64,000 nt of DNA, from the NCBI GenBank assembly GCA_051294905.1, contig CM119371.1:4156001-4220000 (forward strand). The letters run 5' to 3'. The stretch comes from Botryllus schlosseri. Lineage: Eukaryota. The stretch's first letter is position 1. Each line of letters starts with the position of its first letter. Below the pieces are notes generated by a model. That model saw only the letters and a program-made list of their open reading frames with translations. It was not told the origin of the DNA and made no database searches. This document shows, in pieces, positions 17,571 through 32,879 of this stretch. Both the position numbers and the translations under genes were made by a program.

Positions 17571-18990
17571 TTATATACCCGTAGTTTGAGTACACACGAG
17601 GCTAAACCCAAGTTACACCTTTGCGGTCATCGACTCGCGACCGACCAAGTTCACATCACAGAAAGTGACGGAACACTTCAGGGTATGTAAACCCCCTATG
17701 TTTCGATACGGAAATTTACCGTAATGCGTTCAACTAAATTATTCTTCCAAAGTATTGGCGGCTCCTTGAGTCTATTTCACTTGACTGGTGTTCGGCTGAA
17801 CTACGGAGTGAAATCCCCAGCAACTATAAAAGGTGATGCGCAAATTTCTTCCCAGCTCTTAATAATGGGAAATATTAGAATTATGGATTCCGTTGGTGAC
17901 GGGCATAATATACCCGAGAAGACTCGATATTTATGCCACTGGTAGATTGAAAAATGTATCACGTATATATAACATGTAGCTTGTGGGACCTAAACGTGAT
18001 TAAAACTCATCTTTAAACCTACGCAAGAGGCTGATTGTGACTTCCGCTTCGTGATTTGGATAGTTGGCTCATCAATATAGCATCACTTCGTTATGGTTAA
18101 GTACATGAGTAAATAAAGATTATACAATCCACTCGTGTTGACGATTTTACGCGCATAATAATCTTGTCGACGAGTCCGGGAGTGCTACTAATTAGCAACT
18201 CTCTGATCTGTCATGAATAATTAAATACCATCGCCTATCAACGCGTCTTTAGTATCTTCAACGACGATTTGTGCAAGTCACAATGTCCGAGTTTTTATGG
18301 AGTATGTGATATAATAACGGCATGTTCAGGTGCTTCCAACCTTTTGTCTTATACAACACGTATCTTCTGATGGTTATGTTCAAGTGTTGGCGGAAATCAA
18401 TTACCCATATACCCACGCGTTGCACATGTTTGCGGACATTCGATGTCATTCAGTTTCGCGACGTCACTCTTTAATCACTCATCACACTCTTAACGGCATT
18501 GGCTTCGAGCCATCGAGAGATAGGAGCCAACTCATTCCAGGTACGGGGCTCGATAGTTAGACTAGAGATGAAGCTAGGCCATAAGTGATGATACATCTAC
18601 CGTGTCAGGCGTAATGCAGATGCGATTGTGTACGCCGACCGATAGTATAGTGCACACCGGGTCCATTGTATATGTGATTCATCAAGCCAGCGGAACTAGG
18701 TTTGTTGGAGACGTGGCAAATCGCGCAGCGAGCCCGCGGCAATTGATAACGCTGGTCGACCTCATTTCCGTTTTCTGGCCCAAACAATGACTATTAAGTC
18801 CATTTCCGTACGCTGATCACGAATACGAAGTCACCCCCTGCCATTACGTAATTAGTTACTAAATTTTTATTCGACTTTTCTGAGGAAAAAAAAAATTGTG
18901 TCCTGATGAGTGAATCCCGACAGTAGTATAGTCGATCGGTCGCAGATCGTAATGGGTTCTTATGGGCGGGGTGGCGAGCTAACGAGAAAC

Positions 18991-19097
18991 CGGGGGTGGC
19001 GAACTAACGTTTTCGTCTTATGGCGGGGGTGGCGAACTAACGTTTTCGTCTTATGGCGGGGGTGGCGAACTAACGTTTTCGTCTTATGGCGGGGGTG
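18991..19097. repeat. 33-bp subterminal tandem repeat, three perfect copies (mirror at 31634-31740)
   Basis: Unit CGGGGGTGGCGAACTAACGTTTTCGTCTTATGG read directly. Confidence 0.92.
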
Positions 19098-22000
19098 GCA
19101 TGCGGCTATTGTGTCTTATGGATGCGGTAGTGATTCGTACTTTCGTTTATAGACTGCGGGCGGCATGTCGTACTTTCAGCAAAAAAGGTGTGAAATAGTT
19201 TGCTAAGTCTAGGAATTACTCTCATGGTAATGTTTGAGTAATTAGATTACCCCAGAGCCGGCGTAGACGGTGATTCGAATATCAACAATAGTCGCGTTCA
19301 CAAACTAACACTCCAAAAAGGTGTGAAATATTGGTAAAATCCCGCGATCGCTCACAAGATAATACCTGATACATAACCATCGCTCGCGACTCGCTGTTAC
19401 ATACATGCCGATCGTTGACAATGTAATATTCTGGTAATTAGTTTACCACAGAGCCCGCGTAGACGGTGATACCAACAATAGCCGCGTTCACAAACTAACA
19501 CTTCAAAAAGGTGTGAAATAGGTTGCAAATCCCACGATCACTCACGAGATAACACCTAAGACATAGCCATCCCTCGCAACTTGTTTTTACATACATTCCA
19601 ATCGCCACAATGTAATATTTTGATAATCGGTATGTCACAGGAACTGGATTTCATTGGTAAAATTTAATAAGTAACGAATAACAGAACCGTCGCAGACGAT
19701 GATTCGAATACCGACAAATTCTCACTTATTTCTGATCCCACCCAAATCCTTTGCGAAGTTGACGCTTATTCGAAAAGGTGTGAAATAATTGTAAAACCCT
19801 ACGTCGCTGACAGGATAATGCATCAGACATAGCGATCTAGTTATAGCACGGGTCGGAATCCATTCGGGCTCTATAGGTAAATTGAGATAATCCGAAACCG
19901 AATAATTTGACTTTGGCGTAGTGTGAATTGAAATAGGATTGACTAACAAGACTACCAAATTTCAACCCGGTCATATTTAGAGATTATACGCATATTGATT
20001 TGAAACAAGTAATGAAACCTTACAACTCTATTCACGATCCGGCTTTCCGTTTGTCAAAGAGACATTTTAACATCTTACCATACTCAAAAGAATTATTCAT
20101 AATATCAACCGGTGTTAAAAATATAGTTTTCACTTACTTGATTATACCACTACAACTCGCAAACTTGAATTAATTCATCCTGGTTGTATTCATATGACCG
20201 ATAATTTTTATTCAACTGTAAAGGCCGTTACTACACTGCAAGACAAAGTATTTACTAATCGGTACATACACGACTTGACATAACCTATTACATTTTGAGT
20301 ATACGAGATTTGAATGTCTGAACAATAACTGAGAATTAAATGATCACGAGTAATCCGTATATTACAGCGTAAAAGATGTTGGAATGTCAGCAACTCTGTA
20401 CGGTCATAGTTACTACCACTAATTTACCCGGCCAACTCGTCATGATCATTCCTGAAATCTACACAAACATGACCACTGACTAGAGTTAACCACAAAATAG
20501 CATCGAGTTTTAAATCCAGTTGTAGCTTACGTATTATTTGAATGCGGGTTATGTTTTGTTATAATTGGGTGTACGGATAAAGTATTAGGTCTCGACATTT
20601 TAACATTTTGCCATACTCAGTCAATCAGGAAAACATTGGCAAGTAAATCCGTTTGTAACTTACCCGACCAACTCAAGCAGTCAGCCAAGCATACACGAGT
20701 CCATACAATCACTAAAACCTAAAATCCATAACAAGCTCGGTTGTATTCATATCCCGACACATCTTTTTTATTCAACTTTAAAAGTCGTTACTATTCTGTA
20801 AGATAGAGGAATTACTACGCGGTATATTCTGCAAGACAAAGTAATTATTACTCGATATATTTTGTAAGACAAAAGTAATTACCACTCGGTGCAGGTGACT
20901 TGAGATTAACATAATATGTTTGAGTATACGAGATTTGAAAGTCTGATCAACGTATAGTTGCGAGTTCATTTCTTACAATCGAACGCTGGTGTTATATCGA
21001 AAGTTACCATTCTGTGAACATAAGGATTGATACATTGATGTGCCATATGTAATAGTTGATCATGACTTGATTATTAAATTATTCGTGTTAATTAGACCCG
21101 GCGTTGTGGTAAAGGTTATTATGACAACAACAATCTTTTCAGTACCGTTGTTATTAACATATCGAGTTGTAAACTATACGTGTCTGAAATGTTCATGATT
21201 GAAAAATTATTCCACCTTGGTACATATCACTCTGCGCATCGCGGATATCAGAAAATATTTTACAAATGTAATTGTTTCCAGTAACCAAGACTAAAGATGA
21301 AACAACAATTTCGTTTGCTGATTAACAACCGGTGCAATACTTTATTGTCGGAATCTGCGACATCGAATTGAAACATACGCACATTACGCAGTACGAAAAT
21401 ATCACTTTGGGCTCCGGGGCGGTGTCATTTAATCTGTGTTAAACTCTGTTCACACTCTCTGTCGAAAATGCGTGAAATGTAAAAACATTACGAGGTCACA
21501 CTCTAGACTTTGATCATCAAAAAAGTAAATAGAGGTATCTTTACTGGATGGATTCTATTCAACTGGTCTTGGTTAATACAAAACCCATCACAATAATATC
21601 GAACTATGTGCTACACTGAAATCTACAAAAATGTGTTTGTATTGCTGTTCATAGTAGCGATATCGATTTGAACCTCCAGAATAATTGTCATCATGTAACC
21701 AAACTAAGGAAAGTTGTTGTCAATTTGTATGATGTTCACTGAATGCATACTAGAACTAATTGTGTAACGCACACGACCAGAGAAATTGGAAATTTTCCCA
21801 TTGTCATTCGTCACAATACTCGGTCACTAAAATACGTTACTTGGATGTGATTGAATCGCTGGTAGTTAACAGGATAAATCAAACCCCTAAGAAATTTCAC
21901 TCACTCATTGGATATTAAACAGTGTCGCCTAATCGGTGTGGGTCGCTTTTTCTAAATACAAATCATACCTGGCCATCGCTGATAATTAACTCGGTAAATC

Positions 22001-31800: not shown

Positions 31801-31809
31801 TATACTACT
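25857..31809 (-). repeat. Right inverted arm (5,953 bp)
   Basis: Reverse complement of 18922-24874, with eight substitutions found by eye and no net indel. Confidence 0.97.
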
Positions 31810-32879
31810 CCCGACAGCAATTTCGGAATCAGCATCATCAATTTAGGTAAACTCAATTATTCGTTCCAAAACATCAAAACAAGCCGAAAAAAATCGACCA
31901 GAGCTATCCGATTTCGCAATCTTCTCAGCTGGAGATCCCGTCGCTGTCGCAGTTACATTGTGCATTGCAAAGTGCACTGACGATCACGCTAATCGGCAAC
32001 ATGCCACTCCCCAATCAGACGCGCGCAACACCGATCATGCGTCCTATCTAACTGCAATCGGGTGCCTGCGCCCGAGCGGCAATTGCGAAAGCACGGGGCT
32101 CCGCGTTTCAAAAGGCGGTGATTTCGGGCCCCAACCCTTCTCTGACTACGGGCTTGTTGTTCATCAAACTTATTATCTTCGCCCCAAGTAAAATACATAT
32201 CTTTGTGAAATTGTCCTAAAGGCCGGTTATTTTGAAAGTACGTTCGAACATTGTGCCTATTTCTGGCGTCATGGGTCATTTTGTTAGTCGCAAAGGCCCA
32301 ACTATATTTTACGCTCAGAACTCCGGTCCATAACCCCGCGTTTACTTCTCTCGGCCCCCGCCTAATACTATCGAGAAATATCTTTATTACTTATCTCTCT
32401 ATTAACAGTTTAGTTTGTCCTGCCACGCGATAGTTGTTATACACGATTTTTGGTTATTTCGTCGAGCAACACCTCTAAAATATTTTTTAGACCCGTTATT
32501 GCAGTACTTTTTGTAAATAACATATATTAATAAGAATACGACAGACATGCATACTGACTTTGGATCAGTTCGCCATTTACGGTGTTCTGCGATGTGCTGT
32601 GTTCATTGAAAATCGTCATCTTTAGTTCTGTGTTTCCTGATCCGATCGGCAGAGCTTGTCTGTTGGTAGTTGACGACAAGATCGCCGTATTGTCCCTCGG
32701 ATCAATTGTTGTTGGTCCAGATGTGCCATCTCCTGATGAAATTGAAGTGGTTATTCTGGTACTTACCTTTTGATCATGCTGTTGGATTTGGCGATCCGGC
32801 CCGGTGATGGAGAGGTGTGTATTCGTCACATAATACGGATCTGTTTCGATTGTTCTTACAGCCCGCTTTGTTTCCATCA

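Follow-up and report, generated by a model that had tools for sequence, protein, structure and literature searches.

A 12.9-kb palindrome with Polinton ends in the Botryllus schlosseri genome is probably a snap-back derivative of an active Polinton family

How does an element that consists almost wholly of one inverted repeat, and that has no recognizable gene of its own, come to be inserted in a chromosome and to stay symmetric? This question is raised by a 64-kb stretch of the Botryllus schlosseri genome (64,000 nucleotides, G000:C1:4156001-4220000; hereafter the window), which contains a 12.9-kb palindrome between two copies of a 6-bp target site duplication (TSD). We compared the palindrome with itself, with its surroundings, and with the 495.5-Mb assembly of 219 contigs to which the window belongs. 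Our genome searches scored the best candidates only, so the copy numbers given below are lower bounds or pattern counts. Taken together, the results make it quite probable that a Polinton/Maverick family active in this genome gave rise to the element as a snap-back derivative, non-autonomous and non-coding, and that it was inserted here recently.

The self-comparison resolved two arms of 5953 nt each (18922-24874 and 25857-31809), which are reverse complements of one another around a 982-nt loop. Compared base by base, the arms differed by 8 mismatches and no insertion or deletion (99.87% identity), and they made up 92.4% of the 12,888 bp of the element; the length of the arms alone excludes a chance origin. 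The left end reads AGTAGTAT and the right end ATACTACT, which are of the AGTAGT...ACTACT type, and the hexamer CCCGAC stands on both sides (18916-18921 and 31810-31815). A previous sequence-only reading of this DNA had described the arms, a 982-bp spacer, these ends, the duplicated hexamer, and an inverted-repeat share of 92%, and all of these held to the base or to the rounding. The features of the palindrome are as follows.

18916..18921, unstranded: left TSD copy, CCCGAC; identical hexamer at 31810-31815.
18922..24874, plus strand: left arm, 5953 nt, non-coding; reverse complement of the right arm, no Pfam match.
18922..18941, plus strand: terminal 20-mer AGTAGTATAGTCGATCGGTC with the (AGT)2 Maverick-type motif; exact genome copies, 32 forward and 25 reverse (control, 0 and 0).
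18960..19099, plus strand: subterminal array of ~33-bp repeats, 3.3 copies, holding TTATGGCGGGGGTGG; mirrored at 31633-31771.
19238..19627, plus strand: two copies of a 190-bp unit within the arm, from a repeat search.
23720..23900, plus strand: 41-bp tandem repeat, 4.4 copies, in an inner arm module common to all subfamilies seen.
24875..25856, unstranded: central loop, 982 bp, the sole non-mirrored part, from the self-comparison and genome matches.
25857..31809, minus strand: right arm, 5953 nt, inverted copy of the left arm.
31810..31815, unstranded: right TSD copy, CCCGAC, as read from the sequence.

The inner module corresponds to arm positions 3844-5374 and recurs in other palindromic copies.

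The palindrome offered little that could be read as protein. Its longest open reading frame (ORF) with a start codon has 115 codons (24614-24961), or 118 from stop to stop, and Pfam found no family at E<0.1 among its 18 ORFs of at least 70 aa; Rfam found no family at E<=0.1. When the 16 ORFs of a neighboring Polinton (described below) were compared with the arm and loop by tblastn, its protein-primed polymerase (pPolB) gave nothing at E<=1, and an rve integrase was found neither in this way nor by Pfam. The prior claims of a 115-aa longest ORF and of an absence of Polinton genes are therefore upheld by these searches. The single tblastn match, a weak one, lay between the ATPase-like ORF of the neighboring Polinton and the loop (29% over 78 aa, E 0.001). 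It covers window positions 24944-25162 on the minus strand and residues 69-145 of the ATPase-like ORF, and its orientation is the same and its distance from the left end similar to those of the ORF in the Polinton. We considered the loop as a relic of a packaging ATPase and leave this as a lead, given an E value of only 0.001, no Pfam match, and a database search with the loop ORF that returned no relative among longer proteins. The observed/expected CpG ratio was ~1.0 to 1.2 in the palindrome, the Polinton, and host DNA alike, with no sign of CpG depletion.

Is the palindrome a single event, or one of a kind? The first 2 kb of the arm matched many sites in the genome at 88 to 97% identity, mostly as plus/minus pairs 7 to 27 kb apart (best 40 of 3200 candidates). 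A degenerate 20-nt pattern of the ends occurred 1184 times forward and 1168 times in reverse, as opposed to 6 and 5 times for the reversed control. With the loop as a query, all 40 scored matches were 92 to 100% identical over nearly the full length (best 40 of 1074 candidates), and a 30-mer of the loop (25065-25094, up to 3 mismatches) had 374 genome matches (180 + 194), with 0 and 0 for the control. On the first 22.8 Mb of C1, 8 of the 11 exact loop matches fell inside listed pairs of ends, seven of them within ~310 bp of the midpoint of the pair and the eighth 1.4 kb off. The junctions between arm and loop were found at exactly the window positions in two other copies, in one of which the loop is inverted. 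Simple examples of the family measured 13,813 bp (arms 6,472, loop 868) and 12,457 bp (arms 5,492, loop 1,474).

Eleven palindromic copies were read in detail; they were picked because they matched either the window arm or the end of the neighboring Polinton best. All 11 had AGTAGT...ACTACT ends and a perfect 6-bp TSD that was different at every locus: CCCGAC, CACCTC, AACGTT, GATGTT, TACGCT, GGGGTG, CTCGTA, and GATGCC for the first eight, and TGCGTT, GACGAT, and GACACG for three more. In the genome-wide list of ends, some copies have (AGT)2 at the terminus and others (AGT)3. Variation of this kind is what slippage in the sliding-back initiation of protein-primed replication would give. The family is one of palindromes of ~13 kb, at least several hundred in number, with one inherited loop; by a rough reckoning, at least 374 loop-bearing copies of ~13.4 kb amount to roughly 1% of the 495-Mb genome.

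These copies also bear on whether the window structure came about through local inverted segmental duplication or is a foldback chimera created during assembly. Chimeric long reads are known to yield near-identical 6-kb arms, and the window copy is known from the assembly only. However, the same architecture, loop, and junctions recur at hundreds of loci, each copy examined has its own TSD, and the arms in the window differ at 8 sites; we give this explanation practically no weight. The sequence-only reading had named an absence of empty sites and of other copies with their own 6-bp TSD as the sign of a local duplication, and as to the copies we found the opposite, with a separate TSD at 11 of 11 loci.

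Some copies were longer, at 18 to 27 kb. Two of these are old palindromes with a young palindrome inserted inside an arm, the young ones being G000:C14:17558286-17568589 (TSD GACACG, arms 100% alike) and G000:C11:22911988-22925369 (TSD GACGAT, arms 99.94 to 100% alike). We had also considered the long copies as autonomous elements, and they proved to be nested insertions or higher-order palindromes instead, with no ORF above 185 aa in the inserts. The ORFs of the palindromic copies examined gave no transposase match.

Which machinery could have moved such an element? The ends give the first indication. According to a study of Mavericks/Polintons, these transposons end in 5'-(AGT)2//(ACT)2-3' or (AG)3//(CT)3 and have perfect 6-bp TSDs and terminal inverted repeats (TIRs) of 46 to 1,447 bp (PMC8097293), which agrees with the end motifs, 6-bp TSD, and short TIRs given in the sequence-only reading. 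A 6-bp TSD with Maverick-type ends is listed as rare among transposons (PMC6839031). We rejected two other families as a fit to the palindrome, namely, Ginger2, with TGT ends and RTATAY targets (PMC2836005), and GingerRoot, with TA...TA ends (PMC6839031).

The second indication is the complete Polinton that lies next to the palindrome (15,784 bp, G000:C1:4150930-4166713), whose right end is at window position 10713, ~8 kb upstream. It is flanked on both sides by the TSD ACTATC and has a TIR of ~550 bp (481 bp at 99.4% plus repeats); its right end reads AGTAGTTAAGTAGATC inward, with the (AGT)2 motif. Its recognized genes are all on the minus strand. The part within the window is composed as follows.

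1..10713, minus strand: right two-thirds of an autonomous Polinton (presumed helper type), recognized by the end AGTAGTTAAGTAGATC, TIR, and TSD.
3..827, minus strand: integrase, rve core (PF00665, E 1.9e-16, 60.6 bits versus a cut-off of 32.6); the ORF extends past the window start.
1561..2166, minus strand: P-loop ATPase-like ORF, 202 aa; weak matches (PF00910, E 1.4e-4; PF13173, E 2.4e-4).
3384..7283, minus strand: pPolB, 1300 aa (PF03175, 31.3 bits versus a cut-off of 25.8).
10188..10713, minus strand: right TIR with subterminal TTATGGCGGGGGTGG repeats as in the palindrome, from the comparison of ends.
10714..10719, unstranded: right TSD copy, ACTATC; the left copy is directly before the left end of the element.

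The nearest Atlas clusters of the pPolB were eukaryotic PF03175 proteins, with a very high match score. In the left half of the Polinton, a 432-aa ORF had Atlas neighbors at a similarly high score that carry the double jelly-roll (DJR)-like PF21738 in 14 to 30% of their members; Pfam itself gave no match for this ORF, which we regard as a lead to a putative capsid protein. At least four more near-full copies of the Polinton occur elsewhere in the genome at 93 to 96% identity (best 5 of 349 candidates), and a protein search with pPolB scored 36 loci, all at 92 to 100% aa identity, 23 of them without a stop (best 36 of 384 candidates). A genome-wide PF03175 search had returned 0 matches, which we discard as a false negative, since PF03175 matches the 1300-aa ORF of the window and the protein search found the 36 loci. 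A 218-aa ORF at the right end of the Polinton (window 9401-10057), which is open in both arms of a further palindrome, C8_241, was rejected as a gene: its aa identity of 90.6%, compared with 95.7% at the nucleotide level, looks neutral, and it has no Pfam match.

The palindrome and the Polinton are alike at their ends. The window of 64 kb has 11 matches to TTATGGCGGGGGTGG, every one of them in an end of the palindrome or of the Polinton (0.03 expected by chance), and the outer 260 to 290 nt of the two align at 64 to 79% identity. Elsewhere in the genome, the exact terminal 20-mer of the window palindrome bounds C7:2049107-2069998, which encloses a pPolB, and the 20-mer of the palindromes C11_149 and C13_224 bounds C1:19598838-19616100, where a pPolB is likewise enclosed. 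An autonomous Polinton with this type of end, which had been suggested as a thing to look for, is at hand in the 15.8-kb neighbor 8 kb upstream, which encodes pPolB and integrase and has the same motif and subterminal repeat; two pPolB-bearing elements elsewhere have exact terminal 20-mers of palindromes. As would be expected of a non-autonomous element mobilized by Polintons, the palindrome has ends in common with an autonomous element of the same genome, and intact candidate helpers are present.

The palindrome thereby resembles Polintons/Mavericks in its (AGT)2...(ACT)2 ends, its 6-bp TSD, its inverted repeats with subterminal repeats, and its coresident gene-bearing relatives with the same ends. 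Its size falls in the lower part of the range of 12.7 to 24.6 kb given for intact vertebrate elements (PMC8097293). However, it has no pPolB, integrase, capsid, protease, or ATPase gene, and its repeats of 5.95 kb, or 92% of the element, far exceed the TIRs of 46 to 1,447 bp in the same source (PMC8097293) and of 100 to 1,500 bp in another source (PMC10748475). Polintons by definition encode pPolB and integrase (PMC5499653). Since it lacks both, the palindrome is a non-autonomous derivative with Polinton ends and not a Polinton in the strict sense.

The shape of the element also recalls Foldback-type transposons such as Drosophila FB and Galileo, which have long, internally repetitive arms, a small middle, and mostly non-coding copies, so an independent foldback family with its own undiscovered transposase, whose ends resemble those of Polintons or were captured from them, has to be weighed. 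Long arms with internal tandem repeats around a small loop fit this explanation, as does the fact that most of the arm is unrelated to the neighboring Polinton. FB and Galileo have TSDs of 7 to 9 bp and a MuDR- or P-type transposase partner. The palindromes differ in having a TSD of 6 bp in 11 of 11 copies, arms that are several-fold longer, and a partner with matching ends that is a Polinton. In Galileo, too, the arms of one copy are reportedly more alike than those of different copies (PMC3573991). An (AGT)2 end combined with a 6-bp TSD is characteristic of Mavericks (PMC8097293; PMC6839031), no transposase match was found in the ORFs of any copy examined, and pPolB-bearing elements carry identical terminal 20-mers and the same subterminal repeat. 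We consider an independent foldback family very improbable.

Two other copies are instructive as to the symmetry. C8_241 (C8:24179072-24191844) is 12,773 bp long, with the TSD TGCGTT and arms 99.4% alike. The first 1,260 bp of both of its arms are 95.7% identical to the right end of the neighboring Polinton, and this stretch extends ~700 bp past the TIR of the Polinton into DNA that is present at one of its ends only; further inward, the arms join the module that corresponds to window arm positions 3844-5374. The right-end kilobase of the Polinton is also found as inverted pairs at several other loci. For the subfamily of C8_241, the sequence accordingly points to both halves being derived from one Polinton end; the window copy is recognizably Polinton only in its outer 260 to 290 nt. 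The other instructive copy, C11_149 (G000:C11:14931869-14954714, 22.8 kb), is a palindrome of a palindrome. It has an intact TSD, GATGTT, and three symmetry axes that are 4,654 bp apart, and if A is the arm and L the loop, its layout is A-L-A' (to about 1017), followed by A (from about 3382)-L'-A'. It looks like the product expected of a polymerase that turned back once more on an already palindromic element.

The two arms of a copy also evolve together. A tree was built from 1.5 kb of 23 arms, and of the 9 elements with both arms in it, 8 had their left and right arms as sisters (supports 0.94 to 1.0); identity between own arms was 98.8 to 100%, and that with the best arm of another element was 96.4 to 99.0%. 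In the eight elements with sister arms, 157 substitutions relative to the column majority were present in both arms and 39 in one. Relative to the window arm, C6_172 and C13_224 each have blocks placed equally far from either end, and those of C8_241 are mirrored likewise, except for the 41-bp repeat tract. The shared substitutions and the mirrored blocks show that a change arising in one arm gets copied to the other. Older copies have arms that are less alike (97.5% in C14_175), and one-sided insertions were found in C5_264, C7_78, and C14_175. The arms change together, yet they drift apart in place.

This pattern matters for another explanation, by which the palindrome is a passenger comparable to a MITE (a miniature transposable element with inverted repeats), moved by the Polinton integrase only and never copied by the Polinton polymerase, with its arms kept alike by chromosomal gene conversion or by repair of hairpins. 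Recombination between long inverted repeats is known to occur, what the palindromes demonstrably have in common with Polintons is the ends and the TSD only, and nothing points directly to replication. The drift of copies in place and the one-sided inserts that they keep (97.5% identity in C14_175; asymmetric C5_264 and C7_78) make in-place conversion look inefficient, however. In addition, a strand-switching polymerase would be expected to yield structures such as the palindrome of a palindrome and elements in which DNA specific to the right end of the Polinton stands at either end, and the shrinkage usual for non-autonomous cut-and-paste elements is absent. For these reasons, we hold the passenger explanation to be unlikely, although less so than an independent foldback family. 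MITEs and other non-autonomous TIR elements do resemble the palindromes in having only the cis-acting ends of an autonomous partner, which they may outnumber; unlike them, the palindrome is not miniature, being close to the candidate helper in size.

The sizes were surveyed by pairing ends. The first 100 listed ends on C1 gave 40 pairs (median length, 14,591 bp), of which 21 measured 12 to 16 kb, 3 were below 10 kb, and 15 were above 16 kb (the last including nested cases). Among pairs with the exact 20-mer of the window, 14 of 23 measured 12 to 16 kb. The palindromes that were sized individually ranged from 10.3 to 13.8 kb, and the neighboring Polinton measures 15.8 kb. Unlike most non-autonomous DNA transposons, the palindrome family is not shrunk.

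A snap-back origin, which we prefer, would account for these features in the following way. Adenovirus, phi29, and linear plasmids are protein-primed, strand-displacing replicons, on which the proposed mechanism is modeled. The founder would have arisen by copy-back, with a polymerase reversing onto the strand that it had just made, close to one Polinton end. The integrase and the protein-primed polymerase of full Polintons would then act in trans on the palindrome ends. Replication by the helper polymerase would start at the (AGT)n ends, and the displaced palindrome strand would fold back on itself as a hairpin, the stem being ~6 kb long. In each round, before integration of the duplex, the arms may be re-equalized by mismatch repair or by extension of the hairpin on its own template, and the helper integrase would join both identical ends to a target cut with a 6-bp stagger. 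Packaging in the helper capsid may explain why sizes are narrowly distributed at about four-fifths of that of the helper; it is the weakest step.

The closest known counterparts are snap-back or copy-back defective viral genomes, which are symmetric palindromes formed by reverse-complementary copying from one genome end (PMC13506859). Snapback genomes of adeno-associated virus reportedly get packaged (PMC8235507). Defective genomes take all their proteins from the complete genome, to which the putative helper dependence of the palindrome may be likened. Defective adenovirus DNA is reportedly also a case of a snap-back palindrome. The palindromes differ from these in that defective genomes are transient in infection, whereas the palindromes are germline-integrated and heritable, with hundreds of diverged copies and one loop, and in that most of their sequence is no longer recognizably viral. 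Because hundreds of copies have the same loop and arm/loop junctions, we favor a stable, amplified snap-back lineage over a one-off defective genome, as far as sequence comparisons can tell. The sequence-only reading had left open a copy-back defective genome or a stable satellite; the evidence combines the two in a stable heritable lineage that was probably begun by copy-back, and a freshly made defective genome fits less well. We rate the family, from its sequences, as a putatively Polinton-dependent snap-back lineage that was amplified to hundreds of germline copies.

A more specific proposal is that the palindrome is a germline-heritable "satellite" of a Polinton virus, which would be replicated through a single-stranded hairpin of 6 kb by the helper terminal protein and polymerase, have its arms re-equalized in every cycle, be selected for ~13 kb by the capsid, and compete for polymerase, integrase, and capsids. 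We regard this as possible, if rather doubtful. If it is true, the palindrome family both records and restrains Polinton activity in an animal, like a defective interfering genome.

How recent is the insertion in the window? We aligned three DNA runs from three studies (assembled contigs) and one raw RNA run to positions 17900-25900, which comprise the flank, one arm, and the loop. No run in the search contained more than 57% of the sampled words of the flank and end, so none is clearly from the source individual, and no RNA run was listed among the matches; the ends of molecules are not visible in contigs. At the left junction, the sole contig of each DNA run follows the flank to exactly 18923 and then continues with 322, 156, or 115 letters that do not fit. 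Since the right flank after CCCGAC begins with AG, an empty site would break at exactly 18923. With arms 99.87% alike and contigs that break in this manner, the window element is probably a young insertion. Of the 12.9 million reads in the RNA run, 61 fitted, 60 of them only partly, which yields no usable expression signal. A metagenome scan for the left flank junction, made in search of empty sites, gave 0 matches, as did scans of viral contigs for the loop 30-mer and for pPolB relatives.

Several points tell against a snap-back derivative of an active Polinton family. The similarity between the window copy and the neighboring Polinton is limited to the outer 260 to 290 nt plus the repeat motif, and the rest of the window arm and the loop have no detectable Polinton origin, bar the one weak match of the loop to the ATPase-like ORF (E 0.001). 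That the palindrome depends on a helper, replicates through a hairpin, and is encapsidated is inferred only. The arms of C4_275 (approximately G000:C4:27589820-27602100) are only 90% alike, in a patchy pattern, so arms are not always equalized; its loop is inverted relative to that of the window copy, with identical junctions, and it is probably a hybrid of two subfamilies. We tried hypermutation as the cause of its unlike arm, and an ordinary substitution spectrum together with the patchy pattern rules this out. The concerted evolution of arms could also come from chromosomal gene conversion. The size counts from pairs of ends mix palindromes with gene-bearing Polintons. Finally, the empty site for which the sequence-only reading had called is supported in that contigs of three samples leave the reference exactly at the expected point, but it is deduced from the break point alone, which is consistent with an insertion polymorphism.

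In the literature that we searched in full text, no Polintons or Mavericks were described that are non-autonomous, non-coding and palindromic, or of a foldback or hairpin form; the search did not extend to Repbase and subscription journals. The phrase "non-autonomous polintons" was used once, for Tlr1 (PMC5499653), and a study of Anolis found non-autonomous copies to be apparently absent (PMC3014272). The replication and movement of Polintons have so far been inferred almost wholly from their genes, and the palindromes may well be what this machinery leaves behind in nature: copy-back junctions, a doubly palindromic copy, the resetting of arms at each move, and a helper-like size are predictions of strand-displacing, protein-primed replication with a hairpin intermediate. 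The family further offers hundreds of dated insertions, in which arm divergence could serve as a clock in the way that long terminal repeat divergence does, and a concrete target for testing for protein-capped linear Polinton DNA and particles in an animal. It would also indicate that virus-like transposons can themselves be host to a large lineage of parasites.

Four other features of the window deserve mention. An inverted pair, 88% alike (10716-10906 and 36179-36369), begins right at the right flank of the neighboring Polinton. Two inverted arrays of 9- to 10-bp tandem repeats (43218-43550 and 46390-46930), ~3 kb apart and 76 to 91% complementary, resemble the arms of a separate foldback-type element. 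Positions 36639-37454 and 38289-39108 form a tandem duplication of ~0.8 kb, with copies 1,650 bp apart and 91 to 93% alike. Lastly, an open frame of 515 aa (40627-42174) encodes ~13 zinc fingers of the C2H2 type that recur every 84 bp (Pfam E 2.6e-100) and is a host zinc-finger gene or exon.

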